A DNA stretch of 64,000 nucleotides from Roseibacillus sp. (GTDB lineage Bacteria; Verrucomicrobiota; Verrucomicrobiia; Verrucomicrobiales; Akkermansiaceae). The DNA lies in NCBI GenBank assembly GCA_965242925.1, contig CBDEUM010000013.1, positions 128,001-192,000 of the forward strand, given 5' to 3'. Shown one piece after another: positions 2,509 through 20,479 of this stretch (position 1 is its first letter; each line of letters starts with the position of its first letter). The position numbers and the translations under genes are program-made. The notes beneath the pieces were generated by a model. It worked only from the letters and a program-made list of their open reading frames with translations. It did no database searches and was not told the DNA's origin.

Positions 2509-5500
2509 ATGGCGCAAGCAAGACGAAAGGGCATTCGGAACGAGTTATTCCGGCGTGCCATCCGAACCGCAGGTTCTGCCTTCCTCCTTACCATGATGGG
2601 CTGTTCGGACGATTCTGCTGAAAAACACCCACCAGACGAGGCGGATTCACCTGCCGCGGCAGAAAATACGCCCTTTACCTTCAAGGTCCAGAGCGACCGG
2701 GAGCGAGAGGAGCTCGCCCAGCGCGAAAAAGAGTTCGATCCCAGCAACGATGGCTGGGAGAGCGAGGCCTTCCATGGGGAGATCACCTCCCAGCTCAAGT
2801 TGCTGGCAGAATCCCTGTCGTTGGACGAGCCCCCCGGGATTCTCAGCCCGGATGCGGCCTCCTCGATCCTGCGACCCGCCAATCTGGTGCCTGTATTCCA
2901 GCGCCACGGCATGAATATCCTGCGTGCCCCCTCCCCGGCCGACTCTCCTGCCGGCCCCCTCGCGGATCAGCTGAAGGCCCTCGCTGCCTCTCTCCACCGC
3001 GAGGGAGCCGATGTCTCGGTCCGGTTCAAGCAATTCCGCGTCCGTCCCCCGGCAGAGGGTGGAGAGAGTCCCTCAAGCACCGTGCTCTACAAGGCCAGGG
3101 CCTCCAGCCCGTCCGGGGAACGCGTCCAGAACGCCACCTGGGGCATCGAGTGGGTCTACTCCCCTGCCACCTCCACCTACTTGATCAAGACCGTCCGCCC
3201 GAGCGACTTCGAGGAGATCGAGCTGCCGGCTTCTCCGGAGATCGCCACCACCGAGGACACCCATGCGCTCTTCCGGGACCGCACCGGTGATCTCATCGAT
3301 CGCCTCCCGCGGGGCGACTTCATTCACTGGGGTGCCAACGAACTCTCCGTCCGCGGCCTCTACCAGAATGGACGCGCCCTCATTGGACTCGCGGTAGCCG
3401 ACGCCAACGGGGACGGAATCGACGACGTCTTCGCTCCGCAATCCCGAGATCTTCCCAACCTGTTCTTCCTCTCCCAGCCCGATGGAAGTCTCCGGGAAGT
3501 GGCGGCCCGGTCAGGGCTCGACTGGCTGGACGAGACCACTGTCTCGCTCTTCGCCGACTTCGACAACGACGGCGACCAGGACCTCGTCGCGGCAACCCGC
3601 CAGCGTCTTGCCTTTCACGAGAATACCGATGGATCCGGCCTGAATTTCAAGCGGATCCTGGAGCTGCCCCAGAGCGACACCTCCTCCCTCGCAGCTGCCG
3701 ACTATGATGGCGACGGGCTCCTCGATCTTTTCGTGTGCAATTACCTGAGCAGCGTGGGGAATGAGGCGGTCACTCTCTCCGATGCGATCTACAACGCCCT
3801 CGATGGTGGTTCGAACCTGCTCTACCGCAATGAAGGTTCGCTGAAGTTTACCGACGTTACGGAAGCAGTGGGTATGCACGTGGATGCAACCCGGTTGAGC
3901 CTGGCGGCCTCCTGGGAAGATTTCGACAACGACGGGGATGTCGACCTCTACGTGGCCAACGACTTTGGACCGAACTGTCTCTACCGCAACGACAAGGGCA
4001 AGTTCACCCAGATCGCCAAGGAGGTGGGGGCGGACGATCCTTCCTTCGGAATGTCGATCACCTGGGGTGATATCAACCGTGACGGACTGATGGACGCCTG
4101 CATCTCCAACATGTTCTCCGCAGCCGGGAACCGCGTGACCGCCCAGCCCAAGTTCGAACAGGATCTCACCGAGGGACTGGATGCCAAGCGCATCGCCTAC
4201 CTCGCACGTGGCAACACCCTCCTCGTCAACCAGGGTGGAAAACTCTTCCAGGAACGCAGTGCCCAGGCCGGTGTGGTCAACACCCAGTGGACCTGGGGAA
4301 CGCTTTTCGGCGACTTCGACAACAGTGGCGATCTCGACATGATGGCCATGAACGGCTACATCACCGGACCGGTGGTCGATGACTTGTGAAGTTTTTACTG
4401 GCGGCAGGTCCTGCCGGAATCAGGAACAAAGAGTCCCTCGCGCGATCAACTTGAAATCTACCTGCGGGAGGGGCGTTCCCTCAGCGGCCGGGAGCGCAAC
4501 GCCCTCTTCTTCAATACCGGCACCGGAAACAGACGCTTTGCGGACGTGTCATCGATCTCCGGGATCGACCAGGACGGCGATGGGCGCGGCCTCTGCCTCA
4601 CGGACTGGGATGCCGACGGCGACCTCGACGCCTGGGTAAGCAACCGGACGGCCCCCACCATACAGGTCTTCGAAAACCGCTGGGGTTCCCAGGCGGGAGA
4701 TTTCATCGCCCTCAACCTGCAGGGCACCAAGGCTAACCGCGATGCCGCCGGGGCACGCGTGACACTGCTGCTCAAGGGACAGGAACAGGCCCCTCTCACC
4801 CGCACCGTGCATCTCGGGGAAGGGTTCCAGAGCCAGTCCTCCAAGCGCCTGCACTTCGGCCTTGGAAAGAACGCCACGATTTCCTCCGTGACCGTGCGCT
4901 GGCCGGGACCGTCCCATGCCACCGAGACGTTCTCAGGCGTGGAGATCAACAAATTCCACCTCCTGGTGGAGGGCTCCGGCCAGGCCAGGGTCCTGCAACC
5001 CCGGGGAGCCAAGTTCGTGACTCCCGAGAATGCGGTTGTGAAGCCGGAGGAACGGATCAAAAGGCCGGAGAGCAGCAACAGCATCCTGCTCCCCACCCGT
5101 CAGCTCTTCCCCAAACTCCACTATCGTGATCTTGCCACCGGCAAGACCATGATCGGAGCCACTTCCGGCAAACCCACCCTCCTTCTTCTCTGGCACCCGT
5201 CCTGCGCCATGTGTTTCGAGGAACTGTCCATGTTCACCGGGGAAGCCGACAAGATTCGCCGCCTCGGCATTGAGATCCTGGCCACCACGGCCGAACCGGC
5301 GGAGGATGAGGATCCCGATGATGCCGCCAGCATCATCTCCAAGACCGGCTTCCCCTTCACCGTCGGCTTCACCGCCGGGGAAGTGGTCGAACGCATGCTG
5401 GTACTTCACCGTCACCTCTTCTACAGTCCCTACCATCTGAGTGTCCCCACCTCCTTTCTCCTCGACAAGGATGGGCGCATGGCTGCGATCTACCGGGGTG

Positions 5501-6276
5501 CAATCGATCTCAAAGAGTTAGAGGAGCACCTCAAGGCTCTCGCCATCCCCGACAAAGAACTCCTCTCCCGGATCCGCCCCTTCGAGGGTAGCCGGTTCGA
5601 ACCAGCCATGGGGCCGCGGCCCTCGGTCCTCATTAAGACTTACGTCGAAAACCAGATGCCCGACGAAGCCGAGCGCGTCTTCATCGCAAGCATCGAGAAC
5701 GAGTCGATCAGGGACCAGAGCAATGAGATCATGGCCACCCTGGGGCAGAGTTACTTCCTGCAGAAAAAGTTTGCCGAGGCCAAGCCGCTCTTCGAGCAGG
5801 TGGTGAAGCGTGATCCCAGGGACGCCAAGTCCCGTAACACCCTCGCCGCCATCTGCCTGAAGGACGGAAACATGGTCGAGGCCAAGCGTCTGTGGCGGGA
5901 GGCCTCTGACCTCGAGGAGGATTTCTCAGCTCCCCGTTTCAATCTCGGCAAGCAACTCATGAAGGAGCAGCGGACTGCGGAGGCCATGATCCTCTTCCTC
6001 GAATACTGGGTCCTCGAGCCCGATTCCCCGGACGCCCACAATTACCTCTCCATGGGCTACCTCCGTGGTCGTGAGTTCGCCAAGGCCGAGATGCACCTCA
6101 AGCGCCTCATCGAACTGCGCCCCGACGATGGCATCGCCTACACCAACCTGGCCAAGGTCTACCTCGCCCTCCGCAATGTCGCCGCCGCCCGGGACATCAT
6201 CACCCGCGGGCTCCAGATCGAGGGGATCGACCCGCGCAGTCGGCAGGCCCTCCAGCAGTTGAGCGAACGTCTGTGA
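2509..6276 (+). CDS. FG-GAP repeat / ASPIC-UnbV / thioredoxin-like / TPR lipoprotein, about 1255 aa, read through an in-frame TGA at 4387-4389 (candidate selenocysteine)
   Basis: Lipobox MMGC; repeated DxDxDGxxD motifs; ORFs 2509-4389 and 4546-6276 are in the same frame with 52 open codons between them encoding SFYWRQV...SLSGRERN; then GEGFQSQSSKRLHFGLG (ASPIC/UnbV), WHPSCAMC (CxxC), C-terminal TPRs. Confidence 0.8.
4402..4416 (+). promoter_or_regulatory. Candidate SECIS hairpin 1
   Basis: Perfect stem CGGCAG-GTC-CTGCCG beginning 12 nt after the in-frame TGA. Confidence 0.65.
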
Positions 6277-6299
6277 CCATCGGCCCTTCCGGTCGGAAT

Positions 6300-6337
6300 G
6301 GCGGTGGAGTCCTCAGGGCTCCACCACCTTTTTGTTT
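6300..6337 (+). terminator. Rho-independent terminator
   Basis: GGCGGTGGAGTCC-TCA-GGGCTCCACCACC followed by TTTTTGTTT, just after the stop at 6276. Confidence 0.75.
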
Positions 6338-6584
6338 CCGGGGCGCGGGTTCACAGCTTCATGCCGGAGAGATTGATCCCGCTCTGTTCCCACCAGCGGA
6401 TGTCATCCGCTCAGGCTGACACTTCCATCAGATGGAATATCAAACGATACGATATTCAATTCCATTGAACCCTTTTAAAGTAATTCATACATACTACCGG
6501 AATCTAGGTTGTTCGCTGGTTCCCAATCCCCCACCGGGAATCCCAGCAGCACAAAAACTCCAATCAAAACCCACCCACATCTCT

Positions 6585-9500
6585 ATGAAGCTGCACCTTC
6601 GCTTATTCCCCACGCTGCTCTGTGCGGCCCTTATCTCTCCGCTTCTGCTCGCGCAGCACACCCCCGAGAGTCTTCTCCTCCGCCGCACGGACGGTCTCAA
6701 CGTCGGCGGCGACGACTTCACCGGCGCCCTGCCCGAGAACGCCGACCAGGCTGCTCCCTTCGGCGAACTGGACGATCCCAATTCCAGTCTCATTACCGCC
6801 CTTGATGTCGACCTCGAACCCGGAAACGGGGGCATCGATCTCCTTGGTGACAACTACGATCTCGCCTTCATCTTCCAGCTCTACGATGCCGACGGCGTCT
6901 TCGCCTTCACCGAGAACTTCGACGACCGCGTCTTCTCCTTCACCGAAAACTCAAGATCGTGGCTACTCCGATCGGCGGCTCTGACAACCTGACCGCCACC
7001 GGGGCACCCCTCCAGCACAGCGATCTGGGCTGGGACACCCGCACCTACGCCAACTTCGACTTTTCTGCCGAGGGCGGCGGCGGCTGGTTCAACGTTGATA
7101 TCTGGCTCACCGAGGACGGGGGCGGTGCCCAGTCCGCCGCTGACATCGGCTTCGGTTACTTCAATGGCACTTCTTCCAACACCGCCGACTTCGGCGGCAT
7201 CGGATATGCCAGCACCTTGGGAATCAGCAGCGGGGCTCCCGCGGTCTTTGACACCGACGCCAACGGCCAGAGCTGGGGCGCTTACCTCGCCGGCTTCGAT
7301 CCCAATCTCGACAGCGACGGCGATAGCATCCCTGACGGCTACGAGTTGCAGTATTTCCCCGGGGACCTGAGCCAGCTTGGACCCGGCGACTTCGACGGCG
7401 ATGGAGTGAGCGATCCCGACGAGTACATCGACGGGACCGATCCCACTGTAGCGGACGCCGACAATGACGGCTCCAACGACGGCCAGGAAAAGGCTGCCGG
7501 CACCGATCCCTCCGATCCCGACAGCGACGGCGACGGCCTGCTTGACGGGGCGGAAACTGGCACCGGTGTATTCGTTGACGCCAACAACACCGGCACCGAT
7601 CCGCTCGATTTCGACAGTGACGACGATTCGATCGGAGACGGGACCGAGGTTGCTGCCGGATTCGATCCCAATGACCCTGCCTCCCATCCGAACGTAAGCA
7701 CAGCCAACCACAGATCGGAAAGGGTTCTCTACCGCCGGACGGACAACCTCCCCGGAGCGGACTTCACCGGGGCCCTGCCAGAGAACATTGACCAGGCCGC
7801 CCCCTTCGGAGAACCGGAGGACCCGGACTCTTTCCTCCTCGAGGCGATCAATGTGGACCAGGAGCCAGGGAGTGGGGGCGTTGACCTCACCGGCGACAAC
7901 CACGACCTCGCCTTCATCTTCCAGCTCTATGACGCCGACGGCGTCTTTGCCTTCACCGAGAATTATGACGACCGCGTCAAGATCGTGACCACCCCGATTA
8001 GCAGTTCCACCAACCTCGAAGCCAGCGGAGCAGCGGTCCAGCACACCGATGTGGGCTGGAACACCCGCAGTTTCGCCAACTTCGACTTCGGGGAAGGGGG
8101 CTGGTTCAACGTCGATATCTGGTTCAGCGAGGACGGAGGCGGCGCCCAGTCCGCGGCCGACATCGGCTTCGGCTACTACAACGACTCCTCGACCAATACC
8201 ACCGACTTCGGCGGCATCGGCTATGCCAGCACCTTCGGAGTAAGCAGCGGGGCCCCCGCGGCCTTTGACACCGACGGCAATGGCCAGAGCTGGGGTGTCT
8301 ACCTCGACAGCTTTGATCCCGAAATCGACACCGACGGCGACAGCATCCCCGACGGGTACGAGTTACAGTTGTTCCCCGGGGACCTGACCCAACTCGGATC
8401 CGGCGACTTCGATGGCGACGGGCTCAACGACCTGGAGGAATACAGTGGAGGGACCGATCCCACCGACACCGACACCGATGGTGACGGCCTGCTGGACAAC
8501 GTGGAAACCGGGAGCGGCACCTTTGTGGACTCCAACGACACCGGCACCGATCCTCGCTATGCCGACACCGATGGAGACGGCCTGAGCGACGGTGCGGAGA
8601 GCAACAGCGGCACTTTCGTCGATGCCAACGACACCGGCACGAATCCTCTGGAGACGGATTCCGACAGCGACGGCTGCCCTGACGGCGTGGAAGTTGCCCT
8701 GGGCGGGGATCGGGATCCCAACGGCGCGGACGGCCCGGGAGCCAATTCCACCTCCTATGTGCAGCCCTTCGACGGCTTCCCCAACGGTACCACCGACCTG
8801 TGCGATGGCAGCCAGATCGGAAGCAACAACGGCCCGGCCTCCATCCAGAATGACCAGCTCCGCCTGTCCCAGGATGGGACTGGAAGCACTCACTCGTCAT
8901 TCCGGATCCCGGCCCTCAACGGCTCCGCTGACGCCTGGACCATGACCTTCGACTACACCATCACCGCCGGTGGGGACCCGGCAGATGGCTTCGCCATTTC
9001 CTACGGGGCCATCCCCCCACTCACCAACCCCACCGGGGCCGCCACTGACGATGCCAACGGCGCGGGCGAGGAAGCCTGGAGCACCGCCATCCCGTGGCTC
9101 TCGGTGGAGGTCGATACCTATGACAACGGAGCAGGAGAAGGGGGCGTCAATGTGGCAACCAACACCACCGCCCACCCGGATCTGACCTTCATCCCCGGTC
9201 GGCCCATTGCCAGCGGAGAAACGCGAACCGGGACCGTGACGATCGCCTGGGACGGCAATGCCGGAACCCTCAGCGCCAACATCACCGGCCTGGTCAACCC
9301 GGTTGAGATCGTGGACCTGTCCATTCCGGACTTCACCGCCGACGACTCCTACATCTGGGCCATCAATGCCCGGACCGGGGGAGCGCACGAAACCGTCCTG
9401 ATCGACAACATGTCCGTCTCCACCACCACCACTGACGTCCACAACTTCGTGGTCTCCAATGATGACAGCGGGGCTAACCTCGACTTTGAGTGGAACAGCT

Positions 9501-10183
9501 TCGCTTCCGAAGTCTACACCGTGGTGAGCTCCACCGATCCGGCAGCGGACGGCCCACCCGAGACCTGGACCCCCGTGGCCGGACTGCAGAACCTGGGTGC
9601 CACCGTGCCGTCCAACACACACAGCATCCCGAATCCAGGCGATCCGCTGCGTATCTACCGTCTCCTGGCCGGGCCGGTTCCGGCCCTCTTCTCCGACGAC
9701 TTCGAGTCGGGAGCCGGAGACTGGACCGCCCTGGTCAATGATCCCGGTGGCAACACCCAGTGGGAGTTGGGCGCCCCGGTCGGTTCCACCGGGCCGCTTA
9801 CTGGCGCGGAGGATTCCGCCACCGCCTGGTGCACCAACCTGGGCGATTACGGAACCGACTCCGACATTTCCCTTCGCTCACCTGCCATTGACCTGACTGG
9901 TGTGCCCGGAGCGGTCCTGAGCTTTGAGGCCTTCCGGGATGCGGATGGATTCGGCGACACTGCCGAGGTGCGCTTCCTACGCGCCGCCGACCAGGTGCCG
10001 CTCGGGGCATCCGTTGCCCTCGACATGACCGCCTTCGACTCCGACTTTGAAACGATCGAGATTCCGGTCGCCGCCGCAGCCATCGGGGAAACCGTCATCA
10101 TCGAGTTCAACTTCGTCAGTGACAGTAGCGCAGACGCCTTCAGCGGTCTCACCATTGACAACGTCAGCGTGAGTGCCAACTAG
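6585..10183 (+). CDS. Large secreted adhesin-like protein: two copies of an uncharacterised beta-rich domain, TSP3-like Ca-binding DxDGDG repeats, L-type lectin-like domain, C-terminal MAM-like domain; frameshifted by a 20-nt insertion at 6931-6950
   Basis: Signal peptide MKLHLRLFPTLLCAALI; removing 6931-6950 joins ORF 6432-6992 to ORF 6959-10183 (DDRVKIVATP, compare DDRVKIVTTP in copy 2); many DSDGDG repeats; PADGFAISY...VEVDTYDN lectin-like motifs. Confidence 0.75.
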
Positions 10184-10212
10184 GCACCCGCCCAAGTGCA
10201 ACTCTCACCCTG

Positions 10213-10250
10213 AGGCGGTGGAGCCATCCGGCTTCACCGCCTTTTCTTTT
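10213..10250 (+). terminator. Rho-independent terminator
   Basis: AGGCGGTGGAGCC-ATCC-GGCTTCACCGCCT followed by TTTCTTTT. Confidence 0.8.
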
Positions 10251-10293
10251 CCAGTCCCACGCCCCGGATTGGCGAATCCCGGGATGGTCCCGC

Positions 10294-11499
10294 TCAACCC
10301 TCCCTTTCCCGCGGCAGGCGCGCAGTCAGGACCACCGCCGCGCACACAAACCCGGCACTCGCCCACAGACAACCCGACAATCCCGCCCACAGGTAGAGCA
10401 AACCGGAAAGCAGCGTTCCCACCAGACGCCCCCCGGCATTGGCCATGTAGTAAAACCCCACATTGAGGGCCACCTTGTCGGAATCCGTATAGGCCAGGAT
10501 CAGGTGGGAGTGCACTGCCGAGTTCACCGCGAAGACGACTCCAAACACCGCAAGACCAACCAGCACCATCACCACCACCTGAAAGTCCAACTGCACTGCC
10601 AGGGCCAGGGCTCCCGTCACCAGGGCCAGCATCCCCACCCACCCCAGGGCGGCCCGCTCCCCGCCACGCTTCAGCAAGCCCGGAGTAGCCGCCTGGATCA
10701 ACCCGTAACCGATGACCCACGCCGCCATGAACCCGCCCACCGCGGCAAAACTCCATCCCAGCCTCTCCTTGAGGAAGACCGGCAGCCCCACCACAAACCA
10801 GATATCACGCGAACCGAAGAGAAAGAATCGTGCCAGGGAGAGGAGGTTGATTTCCCGGCTCTTGGAAAACAACTGGGTGAACTTCACCTTCTCCTTCGAC
10901 CTGCCCAGATCCTGCCGCAGACTCACCATCCCTCCCACCAGCAACAGGAGGAGGCCACCCGCCATCACCCAAAGGGCCATCACGAACCCAAGCCACTCCA
11001 GGAGAACACCTCCGGCGAGGAAGCCCACCCCTTTCAGGGCGTTCTTCGATCCGGTCAGAACGGCCACCCACTTAAAGAGGGCCCGTCCCGCTGTGGCCTC
11101 TCCTTCTCCCTCGGGAACAAGTAACTTGACCGCACTCTTCGCGCTCATCTTGGTCAAGTCCTTCGCCACCCCGGAAAGCGCCTGGGCCGCCATCACGTAG
11201 CCCACCGAAAAAAGCACCACCCAGTGCTGCTGCACCAGCGAAAGGGCCACCAGGGCCACGATCTGTGCACCCAACCCGGCAAAGAGAGTCACCTTCAACC
11301 CCACCCTCGACCCGATCCAGCCGCCCAGGAGATTGGTCACCAGTCCACAGAATTCATAAAGCAGGAACAGGAAGGCCAACTGGACCGGCGAGTAACCCAG
11401 GGCATGAAAGTGCAGCAGGACCAGCATGCGCAACGCGCCATCGGTCAGGGTGAATCCCCAATAGGACGCCGTGACGATCGTGTAATTGCGTATATCCAT
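10294..11499 (-). CDS. arsJ: Organoarsenical (1-arseno-3-phosphoglycerate) efflux MFS transporter
   Basis: YWGFTLTDGALRMLVLLHFH, SGVAKDLTKMSAKSAVK, LTGSKNALKG, GFYYMANAGGRL; directly downstream of gapdh. Confidence 0.92.
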   Translation of the reverse strand: MDIRNYTIVTASYWGFTLTDGALRMLVLLHFHALGYSPVQLAFLFLLYEFCGLVTNLLGGWIGSRVGLKVTLFAGLGAQIVALVALSLVQQHWVVLFSVGYVMAAQALSGVAKDLTKMSAKSAVKLLVPEGEGEATAGRALFKWVAVLTGSKNALKGVGFLAGGVLLEWLGFVMALWVMAGGLLLLLVGGMVSLRQDLGRSKEKVKFTQLFSKSREINLLSLARFFLFGSRDIWFVVGLPVFLKERLGWSFAAVGGFMAAWVIGYGLIQAATPGLLKRGGERAALGWVGMLALVTGALALAVQLDFQVVVMVLVGLAVFGVVFAVNSAVHSHLILAYTDSDKVALNVGFYYMANAGGRLVGTLLSGLLYLWAGLSGCLWASAGFVCAAVVLTARLPREREG

Positions 11500-11535
11500 C
11501 CTCCCGTAGCGTGTTCGAAATGTGCTGATCCCACG

Positions 11536-12543
11536 CTACGACAAGGAACGCGCCACCCTGGCCGCCAGCTCCATGAGGCGGCACGCATAGCCAAGCTCGT
11601 TGTCATACCACACCAGCACCTTCAATTGGGTTCCATCGTTCACCATGGTGGCCGGTCCATCCACAATTCCGGAACGGACATCATTGACGAAATCCGCGGA
11701 GACCAGGGGCTTCTCTTCAAACCCGAGAATTCCCTTCAGTTCCCCCTCGGAAGCCTCCCTCAGGAAACCGTTCACTTCCGGTGCACTGGTCTCCCGTGCA
11801 AGTTCGAAGACGCAGTCCGTCAGGCTGGCATTGAGGAGCGGCAGGCGCACTGCCAGACCGTTCAGTTTCCCTTCCAGTTCGGGATAGATCATCGTGATCG
11901 CGGTGGCCGATCCCGTGGTGGTGGGGATGAGGGAATTGAGCGCCGAGCGCGCCCGCCGGAAATCCTTGTGAGGTGCATCCACCACCACCTGGGTATTGGT
12001 CACATTGTGCAGGGTGGTGATCAGGCCGTGCACGATTCCAATCTTCTCCTGGATCACCTTCACCACGGGAGCAAGGCAGTTTGTCGTGCACGAGGCCGCG
12101 GTCACCAGGTCGTGCCGGGCCGGATCGTAGAGCCGGTCGTTGCAGCCCATCACAATATTGAGCGCCTCCTTGACCGGGGCCGCCACCACCACCTTGCGCA
12201 CGCCACCATCGAAATATGGCTGCAGCACCTCCCTGCTGCGAAAGGCTCCTGAACTTTCCACCACCAGGTCAATCCCCATGCCCGCCCAGTCCACTTCGCC
12301 CGGGGTCGGCTTCTCGCTGAAGCTGACTTCCTTCCCCTCCACCACGAACCGATCCTCCTCCGCCTGGATGCCACGATCCCAGCGTCCGTGTACCGTATCG
12401 TACTCCAGAAGGTGCGCCGCCAACTTGCAGCCGCCCTTGAGCTCGTTGACATGGACAATTTCGAGGTCCTCGTCGTCCCAGCCTACCCTGAGACCCAGGC
12501 GACCCATCCGCCCGAAGCCGTTGATTCCCACCCGTATGCTCAT
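11536..12543 (-). CDS. gap: ArsJ-associated glyceraldehyde-3-phosphate dehydrogenase
   Basis: [41 protein letters not shown]; between arsR and arsJ. Confidence 0.93.
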
Positions 12544-12567
12544 CGTTGCTCCGTGTTCATGTTTGCT

Positions 12568-12903
12568 TCAGCAACAGGACTCGGCCTTGCCGAGACGCCT
12601 CGAATTCGAAAGACAAAGTTCCGGGCGTCCCTGGCAGCAATCCTCCGTCAGGAAATCCATCAGTTCGCGAAAGCCGGAAACGCGCACTCCATAGAATATC
12701 ACCCGGCCCTCCCGCTCCGCCTCGATCAAACCCGACCGGCTGAGCTCCTTGAGATGGAACGAGAGCGTCGGCTTGGGTAGTTCCAGCCGCTCCGCCAGCT
12801 CCCCCGCACAGAGCCGCCCCAGGGACACCAGCAAACGGAAGACCTCCAGCCGGGACGGATGCGCAAGGGCGGTCAGTGCCTGCACCGCTTGATTTATTTC
12901 CAT
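12568..12903 (-). CDS. arsR: ArsR/SmtB-family metalloregulator with C-terminal Cys cluster
   Basis: ALAHPSRLEVFRLL, PTLSFHLKEL, FLTEDCCQGRPELC, terminal CC. Confidence 0.9.
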   Translation of the reverse strand: MEINQAVQALTALAHPSRLEVFRLLVSLGRLCAGELAERLELPKPTLSFHLKELSRSGLIEAEREGRVIFYGVRVSGFRELMDFLTEDCCQGRPELCLSNSRRLGKAESCC

Positions 12904-12916
12904 AGTTCTAGAAATA
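12895..12916. promoter_or_regulatory. Candidate ArsR operator overlapping the arsR start codon
   Basis: Palindrome TATTTC-N10-GAAATA spanning the ATG. Confidence 0.55.
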
Positions 12917-13212
12917 CAAAAATATAATCCTGCGGACAAGACTTAATACGGTATCCAGATCGACATTCCACTTGCCGTGAGTTCGCGTGCATTGGCAGAA
13001 AGCGATGCCGCCCCCGGTGAGTGGGATCACAATCAGGCAGGGTCACTCTCCCGGTTCCGCCACCCCTGGCCATCGGGACACACCCTCCACCGCCAGGACT
13101 CCGACTCTCCTCCTCCCCTTGGCAGGATCCCCGCACACCTCCCCTTCCACCTCGGCAACCCCTGCGGATTCTGCTGCTGGCACCAGCACAAATCCTTCCC
13201 GGCATGATGAGA

Positions 13213-16200
13213 TCACCGTGATTGGGCTATCGTCACAATGTTGTCCGTATCTGCCCTGACTTGGTGAGTCGACTCGCTCCCGTCCGGCCAGCGGACCGAA
13301 AGCTCCATATCCCTTCCGGGCCGTGCGAAGCACAGGAGGCCTCCCGAGCGGGTGGAATATCCCCCCCCAACCTGTTGCTCCCGCAATTGATGGCCCAGCC
13401 GGACCCTTGCACCAACCGCTTGCGGGTTGCCCTTGGTTCCCACCAGGCGCACCCTCAGCGGCAGCTTGCCGCCACGACGGAGGAAGGTCATCACGGGCTC
13501 CTCATTGATTCCGAAGACCAGATCCAAACGCCCGTCCGTATTGAGATCCACCACCGAAAGGCTCTTCCCGGCCCCGGGAACCTCGACTCCACTGGCAACA
13601 GGTGCAACAGGAGTAAACTGCCCCCCTCCGTCATTGAGCAGGACCTGGCCCAGGCCGCCGTCCATCCGCCCGGTCTCACGTTGGGGGCTGAAGGAATTCT
13701 GTGCCAGGACGGCGTCAAGGTCTCCGTCTCCATCGAGGTCCTCCAGCACCACACCGTAGGACGGTGCAATCTGTGCGATACGTGGCAGGGAACGCCACGT
13801 GAAGACGGCACTGCCGTCGTTGACCAGGATTCCACTCTCAAGGACATTTGCCTCCCGTCGCAGGGACTTTGACAGCCGGAGATCACTATAGATGTCATCC
13901 AGAACCGCACTGGCAAAGTTGTGGAAGGTCTCTAGTTTCACATCAAGAAAGGGCATCGCGTCGCGCGAACAACTGAAACCCCGCCGGGGAAGAAGGCGGC
14001 CTTCCGTATCATACTTGGCCTCCACGAGGTGGGACTTCCCACTTCCGTCGAGATCGCCGTAGTAGATCAACTCAGGGGATTCCGGGCTCGCCTTGTATTT
14101 TGAGTTCAGGCCGTTGTTGGTCACAAGGTAGTCGAGGTCGCCATCACCATCGATGTCTCCGCCTGCAATCCCGTTCCACCAACCCAGCCGGTCAGCGAGC
14201 TGGGACTCCGCGGTTCGATCGACGAGGACTCCCTCTTCGTTCCGAAAATAGCGCACCGGTCCCCACTCAACAGTAAGCAGAAGGTCACTCCAGCCATCAT
14301 CGTCAACATCCGACCAGAGGGCCCCGGTCACCATCCCGACCTCGTCCGCCCCGGGGAACTGCTCCGGGCCGGCCGGCACGAATGTTCCGTCCGTGTTGAT
14401 GAGCAGGTGACTCGGTGGAGCGAGGGGAAAGCTCCCCGGCACCACCCGCCCTCCAACGAAGAGATCAAGGTCACCGTCCCGGTCAAAGTCTCCCGCCGCC
14501 ACCGGCCCGGAACTGGTGCGAAAATCGGGAAGCGCTCCCTTCCCCGCGGGAGAAAGACCTCCCCGACCGTCGTTAAGATAGAGACGGTCACGATAGCTGA
14601 CGTGACCCTCCGCCTCTTCCACTCCACCACTCGCCACGAAAAGGTCCCGATCGCCGTCGCTGTCCGCGTCAAAGAACAGAGCTCCCAGGTCCTCCGCCCC
14701 GGCATCAGCAGCAAGCGCCTCCACTTCACCGACAGAGAACCGGCCATCACCCCCGTTGAAGTGAATCTGCCCTGGATATCCCCGGGATCCTCCGAGAAAG
14801 AAATCCTCATCCCCATCACCATCGAGATCGCCCCAGGCCACACAGGGACCCTGCTGTGAGAGTTTGTTGGGCAAGAGCGGCTGCCGGGAAAAATCGTCAA
14901 AAGGCTGCTCCCGGTGGATCGCGGTGGAAAGATGATCCGACCGCTCAAACAGGACCGGAAGAGCCGAATCAGCCGGGGGATCCGGCTGCCCGACCGGCTC
15001 GGTAATCAAGTGGTAATGATCAGCCTCGAGATCCGTGAGAAGCTGACGCGTCCCTCCGGGCCAGAGAATCTCGATCCTGTCAATGGTCCTCGCCGATCCC
15101 AACCCGAAGCAGGCGGCGGTATCACTGGCGGAGAGCCAGCCCCGCGCGGCGGTTACGAAGCGGGTCTGCTTACCCATCGCGGTTGTCACCGTAATAGTGG
15201 CTCCCAACCCGTCCCGGTTGCTTGCCCGGCCCATCAATTTGATCACCACACGATGAGTGTCGGCAACCCGGTTGCGATAGAGCGTGACCGGTTCCCCCGC
15301 ATTGCTGACGGCCAGATCCGGATCTCCATCACCATCAAAATCGGCACTGGCAGCACCGAAACTCACGCCAAGATGTTCCAGCCCCCACTCCGCACCGGCT
15401 GATTTGAACTTGAGATCTCCCAGGTTCCGGAAGGCCATGTTCTTTTCCTTCCGCAACGGTTTCTCAAGCCAGAACCTGGCATACTCGGGGGTCCCCGGCT
15501 GCAGGTTCTTCCTGGAATAATCGGAGAGGTCGCTGTTCATGTTGTCGCGCATTACCCCGTTGGTCACGTAGATATCAGCGCGCCCATCCTGGTCGTAGTC
15601 CTCAATACGCGGCGTCCACGTCCAGTCCGTGCTCGCCAGCCCGGCAAGGAAGGCGGCCTCCCGAAACCGTCCTGTGCCTGAGTTGAGGAGCAGCGCATTG
15701 CGCATGTACTGCCGTGGCTCGGGCCACTCAAGGAACCAACCCATGTCGTCCATGTTCCCCATCATCACCTTCTCCCGGTAATGCGAGCTCGCCGACATGT
15801 CGGAAGCGAAGAGATCAAGCAACCCGTCATTGTCGAGATCACCGACATCGCTTCCCATTGAGAACCAGGGCGTATGGGGCACTGCTTCCCTCGCGACATC
15901 CTCAAATGTGCCATCTCCACGGTTACGGTAGAGCATGTCAGGCCCCGTGAAATCGTTGGACACATAGAGGTCCGCGTCTCCATCGGCATCATAGTCAATC
16001 CAGGTAGAGGACAGCGTGAAGTAAGCACCCTTGATCCCCGCCACCCTGGAGACATCAACGAACTGCCCGCCGTCATTACGGAAGAGCCGATCACGCTGCC
16101 CCGCCTCCACACGCTGCGCCTTGTCCCCGGGCTTTATCAGGATTTCCCAGTACTCGCTCAGCTCGGGAATTACCACCGGGATTTCCTTTCCGTCACTCTC

Positions 16201-16911
16201 CCGGGGGACGAACTTCACCCTGAAGTCCGTTCCCGGTGGAGGTGCCACCGCAGTGGTCGCAAGGTAGCCGTCAAGATCGCCGTCATTATCAATATCCGTG
16301 AAGCTCATCATCATGCTCCCGCCATTGAAGTCGAGGCCCACCTCCGCGGCCCGGTCGACAAACCTTCCCGTGCCGTCATTTATGTAGAGCTTGTTGGGCC
16401 GGGTATAGCCACAGGCGTAGAGATCGAGATCTCCGTCATCGTCAATATCGACGAAACTCGCACCGGTTCCCCAGAAGCCCGGATCGGAGACCCCGGACGC
16501 CTTGGTCACATCTTCAAACTTAAATCCTCCCGTGTTTCGGTAGAGCCGGTTGCCCCCCGAGGGACTGGTAATGTAGAGATCCGGCAACCCGTCGCCATCA
16601 TAGTCACCCGCGCAGATCCCCCCGGAGGGATTGAGGAAGATGAACTCCTTGAGGACGCTGGCCGGGTCATCCCAATGCATGCCGTAGTCAATTCCCGTCC
16701 GCCCGGCCGGGAGCGCCTCAAAGAGGGCCTCCCCCTCGGCCCGGACCGCACGGACCGGGAGAGGTCGGGATTCGACGGTCCCTGGTGCCGGGGCCACCCC
16801 ACCGCGATCAGGATCCGGGCCGGCAGATGTTCCTGCCGGTTTGTCGCAACCCGCCACCACGAGCACCAGGGGTATCGCTGCACCAGCAAGCAGGTGGGAA
16901 ATCGGATTCAT
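13213..16911 (-). CDS. Double FG-GAP/VCBS repeat + ASPIC-UnbV lipoprotein (CRTAC1-like)
   Basis: Lipobox VVAGC; many GDxDGDGxxD repeats; FSMGSDVGD, QYMRNAL, TDWTW, GWLSAS..FGLG; no internal stop. Confidence 0.88.
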   Translation of the reverse strand: MNPISHLLAGAAIPLVLVVAGCDKPAGTSAGPDPDRGGVAPAPGTVESRPLPVRAVRAEGEALFEALPAGRTGIDYGMHWDDPASVLKEFIFLNPSGGICAGDYDGDGLPDLYITSPSGGNRLYRNTGGFKFEDVTKASGVSDPGFWGTGASFVDIDDDGDLDLYACGYTRPNKLYINDGTGRFVDRAAEVGLDFNGGSMMMSFTDIDNDGDLDGYLATTAVAPPPGTDFRVKFVPRESDGKEIPVVIPELSEYWEILIKPGDKAQRVEAGQRDRLFRNDGGQFVDVSRVAGIKGAYFTLSSTWIDYDADGDADLYVSNDFTGPDMLYRNRGDGTFEDVAREAVPHTPWFSMGSDVGDLDNDGLLDLFASDMSASSHYREKVMMGNMDDMGWFLEWPEPRQYMRNALLLNSGTGRFREAAFLAGLASTDWTWTPRIEDYDQDGRADIYVTNGVMRDNMNSDLSDYSRKNLQPGTPEYARFWLEKPLRKEKNMAFRNLGDLKFKSAGAEWGLEHLGVSFGAASADFDGDGDPDLAVSNAGEPVTLYRNRVADTHRVVIKLMGRASNRDGLGATITVTTAMGKQTRFVTAARGWLSASDTAACFGLGSARTIDRIEILWPGGTRQLLTDLEADHYHLITEPVGQPDPPADSALPVLFERSDHLSTAIHREQPFDDFSRQPLLPNKLSQQGPCVAWGDLDGDGDEDFFLGGSRGYPGQIHFNGGDGRFSVGEVEALAADAGAEDLGALFFDADSDGDRDLFVASGGVEEAEGHVSYRDRLYLNDGRGGLSPAGKGALPDFRTSSGPVAAGDFDRDGDLDLFVGGRVVPGSFPLAPPSHLLINTDGTFVPAGPEQFPGADEVGMVTGALWSDVDDDGWSDLLLTVEWGPVRYFRNEEGVLVDRTAESQLADRLGWWNGIAGGDIDGDGDLDYLVTNNGLNSKYKASPESPELIYYGDLDGSGKSHLVEAKYDTEGRLLPRRGFSCSRDAMPFLDVKLETFHNFASAVLDDIYSDLRLSKSLRREANVLESGILVNDGSAVFTWRSLPRIAQIAPSYGVVLEDLDGDGDLDAVLAQNSFSPQRETGRMDGGLGQVLLNDGGGQFTPVAPVASGVEVPGAGKSLSVVDLNTDGRLDLVFGINEEPVMTFLRRGGKLPLRVRLVGTKGNPQAVGARVRLGHQLREQQVGGGYSTRSGGLLCFARPGRDMELSVRWPDGSESTHQVRADTDNIVTIAQSR

Positions 16912-16931
16912 TGCTCTCGTGGAGTGGAGCC

Positions 16932-16955
16932 TGCCACCCTGTCAGCAGGGTGGCA
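16932..16955. other. GC-rich hairpin between the PEP-CTERM gene and the FG-GAP gene
   Basis: TGCCACCCTG-TCAG-CAGGGTGGCA; no U-tract, so possibly an mRNA stabiliser or attenuator. Confidence 0.5.
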
Positions 16956-17031
16956 ACCATAGCTGTAAAAAGGGCAACACCCGCCACGGAAGATCCGGGC
17001 GGGTGCTGAAAGGAAAAACTGCTGCCTCTCT

Positions 17032-17925
17032 CTACTGAGAGCGGCGCCTCCGGAGGAGAAATGCGAAACCGGTAAGACCCAGCAGACTGAAAACGGCTGG
17101 CTCCGGGATCACACTATCCGCTCCCAGTGCGATACTCGCATCGACAAAGGACTGATCCGCCGCGTTATCCCAGATGCGGAACTCCTCGAAGGTCCCGTCG
17201 AGGGTGCCATCATTGATCCAGGTCGAGCGACCGAGCCAGGTGTTGACATCATTGATGTCCCCCAGAGTCCGAGGGGCAACTCCGTCAACAGTCACGTGCT
17301 CACCATTGCGCCAGTAATTGATGACGCTCTGGGTTCCGTCACCTTCTACCGAAACGGCAAAGTGAAAGATCTCACCAAAGGTGGTATTCAAATTCGAGTC
17401 CAGGGTCGTGACCCCACCGCCGCCCGGATCCTCATTACGCCATTCAATCCGTTGCTGGTTGTAGTTCCCTCCACGGGAAGCCGACAGCATGAGGTAATCG
17501 CGTCCGTCCGTACCGCCGCCGTTGGTATTGCCGGGACCTGTGATCTCACCAGCCGCCGGGTCTCCCTGAGTGCTGCCAATATCGAAAATCCGCGTCCAGC
17601 CTCCACCACCACTTGAGTCAACCGAGACCCAACCTTCAAGAGTCACGGTGGAATGGACCGAGAGCAGGTTATTGGGGAGGTCGCCGTAGGCTGCCCGCCC
17701 GTTCATTGAGTCCCCCCCGGGAAGATCAAGTCCCGTCCCGGTGAAGTTGGCGCCGTCACCCCGGACGAATCCAGTTGCTCCTCCGACAGAATCCACAAAG
17801 GCGGACCCATCGGCAGCTGAGCCCGCAGCTTCGTTGAAGCTCCAGCGATGGATGAGCGCCGAGGATCCCGGAAGGACCGTGCTGGCAAGAAGTGCCAGGG
17901 GAAGGAAATGTCTGTGCGTTTTCAT
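17032..17925 (-). CDS. PEP-CTERM protein with LamG/ConA-like domain
   Basis: Signal peptide; LIHRWSF, TLEGW, WTRIFD, WLGRS, GTFEEFRIWD; C-terminal IPEPAVFSLLGLTGFAFLLRRRR. Confidence 0.9.
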   Translation of the reverse strand: MKTHRHFLPLALLASTVLPGSSALIHRWSFNEAAGSAADGSAFVDSVGGATGFVRGDGANFTGTGLDLPGGDSMNGRAAYGDLPNNLLSVHSTVTLEGWVSVDSSGGGGWTRIFDIGSTQGDPAAGEITGPGNTNGGGTDGRDYLMLSASRGGNYNQQRIEWRNEDPGGGGVTTLDSNLNTTFGEIFHFAVSVEGDGTQSVINYWRNGEHVTVDGVAPRTLGDINDVNTWLGRSTWINDGTLDGTFEEFRIWDNAADQSFVDASIALGADSVIPEPAVFSLLGLTGFAFLLRRRRSQ

Positions 17926-18028
17926 GATGTATCCTCTGGGCTTATTGCCCAGATGGGACGAATAGCTCATTCCACCAATTTCTCGGACCCAGTCAACAGA
18001 AAATGTAACTCATGCAGTTCTCAGCAAT

Positions 18029-20479
18029 TCATGAACTTTCACTAATGTAATGTAGTTTTTGGGTCTCGAGATTCTCGAGCACCTGGATTTTCCCTGAAGG
18101 CCAGCGGATCGTGAGCCGATCCACTTGCTTGGCCGAACCCAGGCCAAAGTGAATGGAGTTACTGGCCTGGGAGCGGTAGGAATTCACCGGGAATTGATGT
18201 CGCACGATCAGGCGGCCCCCTGCCTCCGCCACCAGGCGGGCGCCGATCCCATGCCGGTTGCTGGTCGTCCCGCGCAAACGAACTGCAACCCAGTTTCCTG
18301 CTGGAAAACGGTTCTCGAATATAAGGACCGCACCTCCTCCCGTCTGGCGCACAATCAGTTCCTGCCGCCCATCTCCCTCAAGATCAGCGGCGACACAGGC
18401 CCGGGCATCTCCATCGCTGTCTGCGCCGGTCAGGTGACTGATCTCAAGGAAGCTCTCTCCTTCCATACTGAGAAAAGCCCGGTTCCTCTCATAGCTGCTC
18501 AGATTATTCTCCCAGTTGATCCTGAAGGGATCCTCCACCCAGAATTCTCCCAATGAAGGATCGGGAGCGCCAGGACAACTGGCAGTAGCTGAGCGGTTAA
18601 ATGGTTGTGACACGACAACCTGCCAGAGACAACTTCAGCCATCGGGCTTGCCCCGTTCCTGGCTGATGAATCCTGCGGTCGCGTAGAGGTCGAGCCAACC
18701 GTCATTGTTGAAGTCCGCCAGGCACGGTCCCCACGCCCATCCAACCGCGTTTACTCCCATCACGGTTCCAACCGGGGAGAATCGTTCTCCTTCCTGCCCG
18801 AGGTAGAGCTGGCTCCCATCAACCAGTCGTTCGAGTTTCCGGACCACCTGCCTGTCATATTCTCCCGGGGGAATATTGCCCATGACCCGCTGCCCGGCCT
18901 TGGAATACATTTCCCCGATATAAAGATCGGAGTAGCCATCGTTGTTGATGTCTCCCGCTGTCATTCCCATTGAACCAAAATCGGTTGGCGCCTCGTTCAG
19001 TTCCTTCCCCTGGAATTGTCCATTCGGACCATTGAGCAGCAGGATTCCATCTCCAAACTCGTCGATTACATAAAGGTCCGGCCTCAGGTCATCGTTTGCA
19101 TGGAACCAAACTGCGTTGCTGGTCGAACGCTGACCGCCATCGAGAGGCGCCCCATTGGTCGCATCCTCAAATTGCCAGCCCCCGACATTCCGCAGCAACT
19201 GGTTGTTGGCCAGCTTGCCTGCCTTGCCGTCAATCCAGGATCCCGATTTGAACCCGCCTCCTGCTCCCCGGGTGACATAGAGGTCGACCTTTCCATCGAG
19301 GTCGTAATCTGCCAGCGAAATCCCGGTGGGTTTCACCTGAGTTTTTTCCAGAACCTGCTCCCGGGTGCTGGTCTTGAATTCTTCCCGCGACATCCCGATC
19401 AGAAAGGAGGTCAGGTTGCTGCGCTCCGTGATGTCCTGAAAAAAACGACCGTTCAGATTACGGTAGAGGCGGTAGCCATCCGGATGGTGGGCAATGCCGT
19501 GGATGAGATCCTCCCAGCCGTCGCCATCCAGATCGACAAAAGCCGCAAAGCCCCCTCCCAGGTGACCACGTATGCCCAGGGCCTGCGTCCCTTCCCGAAA
19601 CAATCCCCGCGGCTGGCCGACGAAAAAGCGTGAACCCCGCATGTCGGTCACGAAGAGGTCATGGCGCCCATCGTTGTTGAAATCACAAAGGTAAACTCCG
19701 CCCGTGTTCATCACCCTCCGGTTACGGGGCTCCTTCCAGTTATCCCAGAAGAGAGCATTGTTGATTCCGCGCCCGGCAGCTACTTCGGTCATGAGAGGCT
19801 CCCTGGCATGCCCAAGCACCGCACGTGTCACATGCATGGAGACAAGCCACCCCGGGGTCGCCAGCCGCTCCTCGTTCAAGGCCGAGACTCCGAACTGAAA
19901 AAAGAGGGTGAGCTCTCCCCGTGATCCTGCCGGACCCTCCGCGAACACCTCGATCTTTCCAGTCCCGGACCAGGGTCCCCCGGGGTTGTCCCGCTCCTCC
20001 GGAGAGAGCGTGATGACATGAGTCCGCAACGTGAGATCGGCGCGCCCGCTCTGATCGAGTTCAGCCAATCTTCCCAGGATCCAGTCGGTAATCCCCTCCC
20101 GCTCGACACGCCGCGATTGACTGCTGCCAACCTCTTCGCGCACCGCAAGGATACCAGCTTGGAAGGATTGGCCTTTTCCGGCAGCTGGATGCAGTCCCTT
20201 GAACCCGGGAGCAAGGATATCAACCAACTTCTGGCGGTTCCGTGACTGCAAGGCTTCTGCAATCTGGGAAAACCCAATCTCCTTCAGGAGATTGGCACGA
20301 TGCTCGGCATCCCATATGTAACTCCGTCCCTCCTCACTGATGAGCCTGGGCGGATCGTCCGGCTCCCGGGCCACGCGATCGCTCTCATCCTTCTCGGAAC
20401 AGGAGCAAAGGAGCAGGGCCACCACCCAGCAGGGTGCTGCCCTTGCCGCGGGGAACTCCGTCATCGGTCCGGGCATCAC
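18029..20479 (-). CDS. FG-GAP repeat / ASPIC-UnbV lipoprotein, about 816 aa, read through an in-frame TGA at 18637-18635 (candidate selenocysteine)
   Basis: Lipobox LCSC; DxNxDG repeats; ORFs 18635-20479 and 18029-18613 are in frame with 7 open codons (SCLWQVV) between them; NLSSYERNRAF and SYRSQ..IHFGLG (ASPIC/UnbV). Confidence 0.8.
18604..18633 (-). promoter_or_regulatory. Candidate SECIS hairpin 2
   Basis: After UGA: lower stem GUUGU/ACAAC, upper stem GGCA-GGU-UGUC; shares GGCAGGU with hairpin 1. Confidence 0.55.

Follow-up and report, generated by a model that had tools for sequence, protein, structure and literature searches.

Among described proteins, the nearest relative of the genes reported here is CRTAC1, which to our knowledge is not known as a selenoprotein, and the nearest described decoding system is the insertion of selenocysteine (Sec, U) at an in-frame UGA as typified by Escherichia coli fdhF. 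We analyzed a 64,000-nucleotide stretch of a Roseibacillus sp. genome (contig CBDEUM010000013.1, positions 128,001 to 192,000; hereafter the window, numbered from its first letter) that carries two CRTAC1-like genes, A and B, each with one in-frame TGA. We propose, with a probability of roughly 0.86, that each is a single gene for an exported CRTAC1-like protein in which UGA is decoded as Sec through SelB and a Sec insertion sequence (SECIS).

The published record of such proteins is slight. Table S9 of Kim et al. 2016 (PLoS One, PMC4807772) lists four ASPIC UnbV / FG-GAP selenoprotein candidates, each annotated as two genes, with Gly rather than Cys in the closest non-Sec match and a SECIS predicted in three of the four; we liken them to genes A and B by domain description, not by sequence. 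The main-text passages of that paper on selenoproteins do not discuss these candidates, and in those parts of the paper the family amounts to table rows, with expansion, covariation, a CxxC link and distribution not reported. A 2026 review (PMC13188914) tabulates 119 prokaryotic selenoprotein families, and keywords for domain, name and Pfam entry (including PF07593 and PF13517) did not find the family in the accessible portion of its text. A full-text search, beyond whose reach lie other papers' supplements and subscription journals, returned no other relevant paper on selenocysteine in UnbV/ASPIC, CRTAC1 or FG-GAP proteins. An earlier, sequence-only reading of this DNA had called the family undescribed; that holds for the accessible part of the 119-family catalogue and has to give way for the four candidates of Table S9. 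The Sec reading is strongly supported by sequence comparison, and the family is real, large and nearly undocumented.

Gene A, the long form (2509..6276, + strand), is a frame of 1255 residues when TGA is read as U, and its only internal TGA is codon 627 (4387..4389), here read as selenocysteine. The order of its parts is a lipoprotein-like N-terminus, FG-GAP propeller, Sec, UnbV_ASPIC, a TlpA/ResA-like thioredoxin domain and tetratricopeptide repeats (TPR). The thioredoxin-fold (AhpC-TSA / ResA-like) domain occupies 5125..5484 (residues 873-992), with a CxxC formed by C899 and C902 (nt 5203-5214), and the C-terminal TPR region lies at 5623..6261, all on the + strand. Gene B, the short form (18029..20479, - strand), is an 816-residue frame on the same terms and consists of FG-GAP propeller, Sec and UnbV_ASPIC; its TGA is codon 615 (18635..18637, - strand), in the motif PDG-U-S-C-L-W, where the Cys two residues after U is encoded at 18629-18631 (- strand). 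Pfam models FG-GAP_3, FG-GAP and UnbV_ASPIC match both proteins, which gives them the CRTAC1 / ASPIC-UnbV architecture, and AhpC-TSA and TPR match gene A; gene B has neither a thioredoxin nor a TPR part. Lipobox-like N-termini (..LLTMMGC.., ..LLLCSC.., ..LVGC.., ..LSAC..) can be picked out by eye in genes A and B and their paralogues, and export as lipoproteins is putative on that footing.

By BLASTP the two proteins align across 581 columns at 30% identity (E 5e-54); U stands against U, and a downstream (S/N)LS(G/S)xERN motif is aligned as well, in keeping with the homologous in-frame TGA on which the sequence-only reading was built. AGTT and then GGCAGGT follow the TGA in both genes, exactly as that reading had reported. 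It had further argued for site-specific recoding over a changed code, and indeed the terminal codon of both genes is TGA, each frame having only one internal TGA. Its expectation that annotation pipelines would split each gene is borne out: open reading frame (ORF) calls under translation table 11 halve gene A into 2509-4389 and 4546-6276 (+ strand) and gene B into 20479-18635 and 18613-18029 (- strand). Halves are found in databases as well. In a search of 5.8 billion proteins with gene A residues 560-830, 38 of the 120 matches tabulated were C-terminal fragments starting just after the Sec column. The GTG of "VV", about 10 codons past the TGA, is called as the start in such entries, and N-terminal fragments end in ...PDG. 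These C-terminal database fragments are, on the sequence comparison, best taken as halves of split putative Sec genes.

The identity of the stop codon is constant across the family. All 80 unique stop-bearing sites, a set selected by the pattern TGA-AGY, carry TGA, with TAA or TAG at 0 of 80 (either had been named beforehand as a sign against Sec); the Ser codon after U is AGT in 61 forms and AGC in 19. Gene-B orthologues have TGA-CCC (U-P-C) in place of TGA-AGY. At one other locus (L079) the TGA form reads TGA-CGC (U-R-F-F-W).

The letters themselves were verified by aligning public sequencing runs to positions 3800-5000. An independent marine DNA run gave a 568-nt contig over 4284-4851 with no difference listed at 4387-4389, and RNA libraries of two studies gave contigs (4332-4481 and 4342-4542) that span the site with TGA unchanged; the TGG or TGC that raw reads might have held is thus not seen. 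Since RNA libraries may contain DNA, these contigs show letters, not translation. Contigs of other paralogues or organisms from the DNA and RNA runs align only over a 33-nt core of TGA plus hairpin (4378-4410) and then diverge. As far as these alignments reach, this shows the TGA-plus-hairpin core to be strongly conserved at the DNA level.

The two genes of the window belong to a much larger set. A tblastn search of the genome's own assembly (4.58 Mb, 42 contigs, 89.9% complete) with 271 residues around the site found 13 loci with TGA at the same column and the motif DL-U-SF(F/Y)WRQVV; we count about 11 as distinct, because two contig pairs (C28/C37 and C12/C17) look like assembly duplicates. 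Both paralogues of the sequence-only reading are real, and TGA recurs at this column far beyond what chance would give; it is the number two that falls short. The contig pairs hold near-identical copies of two Sec genes, one of them at a contig end; duplication in the assembly or strain variation is the probable cause (contamination 3.18%). Some 15 more distant FG-GAP/UnbV paralogues in this genome have neither stop nor motif.

Among 41 relatives, 24 were matched at E <= 1e-20, including 18 of 19 genomes of the same genus with 4-16 matches each. Of the approximately 150 matches listed for these relatives, all but seven contain exactly one TGA; the exceptions are six without a stop (four of them not spanning the column) and one with two TGAs. 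An even sample of 201 genomes from the order gave 56 genomes with matches, and each of about 150 matches listed has one TGA. Five genomes examined more closely hold 7-14 copies each, with one TGA in 50 of 51 rows. Likewise, gene B has orthologues in four other genomes (50-55% identity; ORFs of 788-858 residues), with one TGA each. An even sample across the phylum (401 genomes) matched only 10 other genomes, all with stop-free sequences at 33-39% identity. The idea of a phylum-wide family was dropped on these distant, stop-free matches, Sec-bearing lineages having been missed by the sample; the sparse matches place the Sec form, within the phylum, mainly in some lineages of the order. Overall, the family is widespread among Verrucomicrobiota and Planctomycetota of marine origin, and some Acidobacteriota and Myxococcota have it too. 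If the proposal is true, it would be one of the largest single-family selenoprotein expansions, with up to 14-16 copies per genome.

The machinery expected for Sec insertion is largely present. This genome encodes a SelB of 653 residues with all SelB domains, a tRNA-Sec (59 bits with Rfam; called tRNA-SeC(tca) by ARAGORN) and a selD that itself contains a TGA (..SSCAG-U-ASKLG..; contig C14, nt 1531). The search for these genes that the sequence-only reading had recommended therefore succeeded for selB, tRNA-Sec and selD and fell short for selA, to which we return below. Within the genus, every family-bearing genome has selA or selB. In the order sample selA occurs in 61 of 201 genomes; all 31 other genomes with strong TGA-form matches (E <= 1e-45), from 15 genera and three families, are selA-positive, and selA-negative genomes of the sample, the present one excepted, gave no strong match at that threshold. 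In five selA-negative genomes whose loci were inspected one by one, the only paralogues are stop-free ones of 26-35% identity. Similarly, all five genomes with TGA forms in other phyla (three Acidobacteriota, one Myxococcales and one Pirellulaceae) have selA. The TGA form thus strictly co-occurs with selA, and the converse fails; we attach no P-value to the co-occurrence because kin are not independent.

A SECIS-like hairpin follows the TGA in both genes. In gene A it spans 4391..4427 (+ strand) and has a core of CGGCAG/CUGCCG (4402-4407 with 4411-4416), a GUC loop and an outer stem; in gene B it spans 18603..18620 (- strand), pairing GGUUGU with ACAACC around the loop CGUGUC. The genome's own selD has the hairpin CGCGCAG-GUC-CUGCGCG about 27 nt after its UGA, and this shares the apex CAG-GUC-CUG with the CGGCAG-GUC-CUGCCG of gene A. 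A hairpin was counted where a stem of >= 5 bp closes a loop that contains GU and starts 19-24 nt from the U of UGA. By this definition 78 of 80 unique TGA forms have one, against 3 of the 17 sense homologues that share the peptide motif; random synonymous recoding of the TGA-form peptides yields one in 1487 of 8000 cases (18.6%). A criterion based on the longest stem only was dropped, since it gave 61 of 80 and wrongly failed the gene-A clade, and was replaced by this test of existence.

Covariation was assessed in an ungapped alignment of 66 distinct sequences. A six-pair helix (columns 15-20 with 26-31, loop GGUCG) has 91.4% of cells paired, versus 22-67% in slid registers, and none of 500 shuffles reaches its pairing value or its covariation score. 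Pair 18:28 occurs in six types (GU 34, GC 13, AU 9, CG 5, UA 3, UG 1), and it joins the silent third base of an Arg codon to the first base of an S/P/A/T codon, so that amino-acid replacement covaries with a synonymous site. Sub-clades form hairpins in other registers (GGAGGC/GUCUCC, GAGCAC/GUGCUC and GCGCAA/UUGCGU), and in the gene-B clade GGUUGU/ACAACC becomes GGCUGU/ACAGCC in orthologues, a compensatory change from U-A to C-G. A downstream stem-loop with an apical G/U is accordingly kept by compensatory change, and the hairpin, which the sequence-only reading had seen in two genes, extends through the family. As judged from these comparisons, the hairpin is evidently selected at the RNA level. 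Two loci on contigs of Acidobacteriota metagenome-assembled genomes (L118 and L119) are sense forms with Asn (AAT/AAC) at the column, and have a 9-10 bp hairpin at the SECIS position all the same; this may be a recent Sec-to-Asn replacement, or chance.

We propose that SelB and Sec-tRNA(Sec) would decode the single internal UGA by the ordinary bacterial route, SelB being recruited by the SECIS hairpin that begins 12-17 nt past the UGA, inside the codons for SF(F/Y)WRQVV. What the selenol might do is suggested by cysteines elsewhere in the proteins. A CxxC lies 230-330 residues after U in 73 of 75 long TGA forms versus 4 of 35 sense forms, the remaining sense forms having SxxC, AxxC or nothing at that position, and the Cys of SGxERN-C, about 40 residues after U, occurs in 61% of TGA forms versus 2% of sense forms. 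Among short forms, U-x-C is found in 7 of 10 (the five members of the gene-B clade, L036 and C34_106360), and four gene-B orthologues keep this motif as U-P-C-L-W. An AlphaFold model of gene A residues 250-1010, built with 46 sequences (mean predicted local distance difference test, pLDDT, 87.4; predicted template modeling score, pTM, 0.87), places Sec as the first residue of helix 378-388, a helical stretch in an otherwise all-beta propeller, and CxxC at the start of helix 651-662. Of the two genes of the window, only gene A has this thioredoxin fold with CxxC at a helix N-terminus. Redox-active Cys and Sec residues often stand at helix N-termini.

On this evidence the selenol may be redox-active, placed at the N-terminal end of a helix that is inserted into the propeller. 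In the long forms, gene A among them, the fused TlpA/ResA-like CxxC domain would recycle it; in many copies the Cys about 40 residues downstream (SGxERN-C) could be the resolving thiol, and in short forms, gene B among them, the cysteine of U-x-C could fill that place. We rate the chances as about even that the selenol is redox-active and resolved by a nearby Cys (ERN-C, U-x-C), by the fused CxxC, or by both. In most sense relatives Sec, CxxC and the ERN-C cysteine would have been lost jointly, which would leave these proteins redox-inactive.

Several observations weigh against Sec insertion or against a catalytic role for it. Neither PF03841 nor TIGR00474 turned up selA in this assembly (89.9% complete), nor does it lie beside selB or beside tRNA-Sec; the best explanation is that it fell in the lost ~10% of the assembly, because 18 of 19 genomes of the same genus have it. 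NCBIfam has no family model for either protein except for the TPR and ResA-like parts, and an Rfam search of 4300-4500 at E <= 10 returned two chance matches and nothing else. Folding of single sequences is no better than that of shuffles (z -1.52 for gene A, +0.16 for gene B and -0.46 for selD), and TGA and sense forms differ little in the minimum free energy of the 42 nt that follow the codon (-11.8 vs -10.3 kcal/mol); position-specific presence and covariation were used because folding energies discriminated poorly. The association of Sec with CxxC, striking and large in counts, appears to reflect few independent events: a tree of 125 rows requires at least 5 changes of U/sense and at least 4 of CxxC and yields 2-5 independent pairs, so few that a sign test for Sec versus CxxC cannot reach significance. 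Gene A itself has Ala at the ERN-C column, and is thus without that cysteine, while gene B has Arg. The proposition that all short forms carry U-x-C was rejected, L194/L195 and L200 being without it.

The residues that replace Sec also count against a catalytic selenol. Among the 120 matches tabulated for gene A 560-830, 35 are full-length DL-x-SFFWRQVV proteins in which x is S, A, G, E, D, Y, N, Q, R or M. Cys is at the column in 0 of these 35 motif-bearing database proteins and in 0 of the 17 sense loci with DNA, which are mostly from Terriglobia (for example, the Tunturiibacter gelidiferens chromosome); the gene-B search likewise gave Cys in 0 of 113 matches, its closest full-length relative having Asp. 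Such scarcity of Cys is unusual for a catalytic Sec. Two near-identical loci (L097/L098), from two selA-negative genomes of the same order, read DY-C-TKFW-C, and BLASTP places their Cys opposite the U of gene B; Cys was seen at the column nowhere else. Of the sequence-only reading's proposal to look for Cys in homologues and for TGA in machinery-positive genomes only, the second part stands (this assembly's selA being unfound) and the first is met with at just these two related loci. Finally, 3 of 5 sense-form genomes have selA, on which ground we rejected the suggestion that sense forms arise from loss of the machinery.

Three other explanations of the TGA deserve comparison with Sec decoding. 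A true stop, whether in two genes or in a pseudogene whose halves are made separately or never, would agree with the behavior of gene callers, which split the loci and call the GTG about 10 codons past the TGA as a start. It is hardly tenable: the codon is always TGA, at one column and exactly once per gene, in genes diverged to 30% identity; frame, domain order and fold run continuously across it, the model forming one propeller at pTM 0.87; sense homologues are single proteins; and the TGA form strictly co-occurs with selA. Decoding of UGA without selenium, whether the hairpin assists a near-cognate tRNA or the code has changed, could appeal to other systems, in which a hairpin past the stop can promote read-through. 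We consider it very improbable, given that TGA terminates both genes and is internal only once in each, that Trp never stands at the column in motif-bearing sense forms, that TGA forms are confined to selA genomes, and that the genome's own selD has a hairpin with a matching apex.

An unlikely alternative, to which we give more weight, grants the insertion of Sec and denies it a catalytic role: Sec would serve as a selenium-dependent gate setting the ratio of truncated propeller to full-length protein, or as a structural or metal-binding residue. The column's tolerance of S, A, G, N, E, D, Y, R, Q and M in sense homologues, with almost never a Cys, speaks for it, as does selA in three of the five sense-form genomes. 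The accessible part of the 2026 review (PMC13188914) reports metal binding as predicted for some selenoprotein families, which we count in its favor. Against it, Sec forms are the ones that tend to carry the fused CxxC, the ERN-C cysteine and U-x-C, Cys replaces Sec in selA-negative kin (L097/L098), and the model sets Sec at a helix N-terminus, as is common for redox Cys and Sec.

Two other regions of the window bear on the family. A conserved neighbor of gene A is a secreted TSP3-repeat protein at 6432..10183 (+ strand), present as two overlapping frames (6432-6992 and 6959-10183). Its N-terminal module is duplicated in tandem; the frame breaks directly after ...FTENFDDRV, a point at which the second copy of the module reads through in frame, and the break is an apparent frameshift or sequencing error. 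At 8 of this genome's 11 loci the Sec gene has a TSP3-repeat relative (secreted, ~1000-1400 residues) beside it. Downstream of gene B on the same strand is one of the distant, stop-free paralogues, an FG-GAP/UnbV_ASPIC protein of 1232 residues (13213..16911, - strand) without TGA or Sec motif and with Ser at the aligned column. Its module is doubled: FG-GAP_3 matches nine stretches of it and UnbV_ASPIC two. It lies downstream also of a 312-residue ORF without known family (17032-17970), again on that strand.

Taken together, these features would define a new class of extracytoplasmic selenoenzyme, in which a selenol carried by a CRTAC1-like propeller is the catalytic group and a TlpA-like CxxC recycles it in cis; each genome would hold 8-16 paralogues, usually paired with a secreted calcium-binding TSP3-repeat protein. 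We hold this full picture tentatively, at somewhat less than an even chance. If Sec decoding is correct, gene callers cut the members of a large family in two, and annotators give the pieces the names of unrelated proteins ("CRTAC1 family", "tetratricopeptide repeat protein"). Known selenoproteins would gain an exported scaffold that is not a thioredoxin fold, and one in which Sec alternates with ordinary residues rather than Cys. Because its sense relatives carry no Cys, homology screens that rely on Sec/Cys pairs would be expected to miss the family. On the full picture, it would also be the dominant part of the selenoproteome in abundant, aerobic Verrucomicrobiota and Planctomycetota of the sea, tying their surface biology to selenium supply. 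The CRTAC1/UnbV fold would gain a testable chemical handle for its bacterial role.

Compared with described systems, genes A and B combine parts that are familiar separately. Like CRTAC1, they have an FG-GAP propeller and an UnbV_ASPIC domain, and murine CRTAC1 (9ETN) is the best solved match to the model (9etn_A; Foldseek E 1.3e-26, template modeling score (TM) 0.73 on target; profile E 6e-35). The sequence alignment to 9ETN differs in skipping the Sec segment, with nothing aligned between query residues 85 and 224; being helical in the model and unaligned to 9ETN, this segment may be an insert relative to CRTAC1. The C-terminal domain of the long forms matches AhpC-TSA/ResA (Foldseek TM about 0.8, CxxC at a helix start) and so resembles the extracytoplasmic thiol-disulfide oxidoreductases of TlpA/ResA type, from which it differs in being fused to a Sec-bearing propeller. 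Exported fusions of a catalytic domain with a thioredoxin, such as the Trx-MsrA/B fusion PilB, offer an analogy. Finally, the recoding is likened to the E. coli fdhF type in its in-frame UGA, a hairpin just downstream within the coding sequence, a loop with G and U (GGUCG, GUC or GGU), the presence of selB, selC and selD in the genome, and a selD of its own with the same type of hairpin; it departs from that archetype in its host, which here is an exported beta-propeller and not a cytoplasmic or Tat-exported oxidoreductase.

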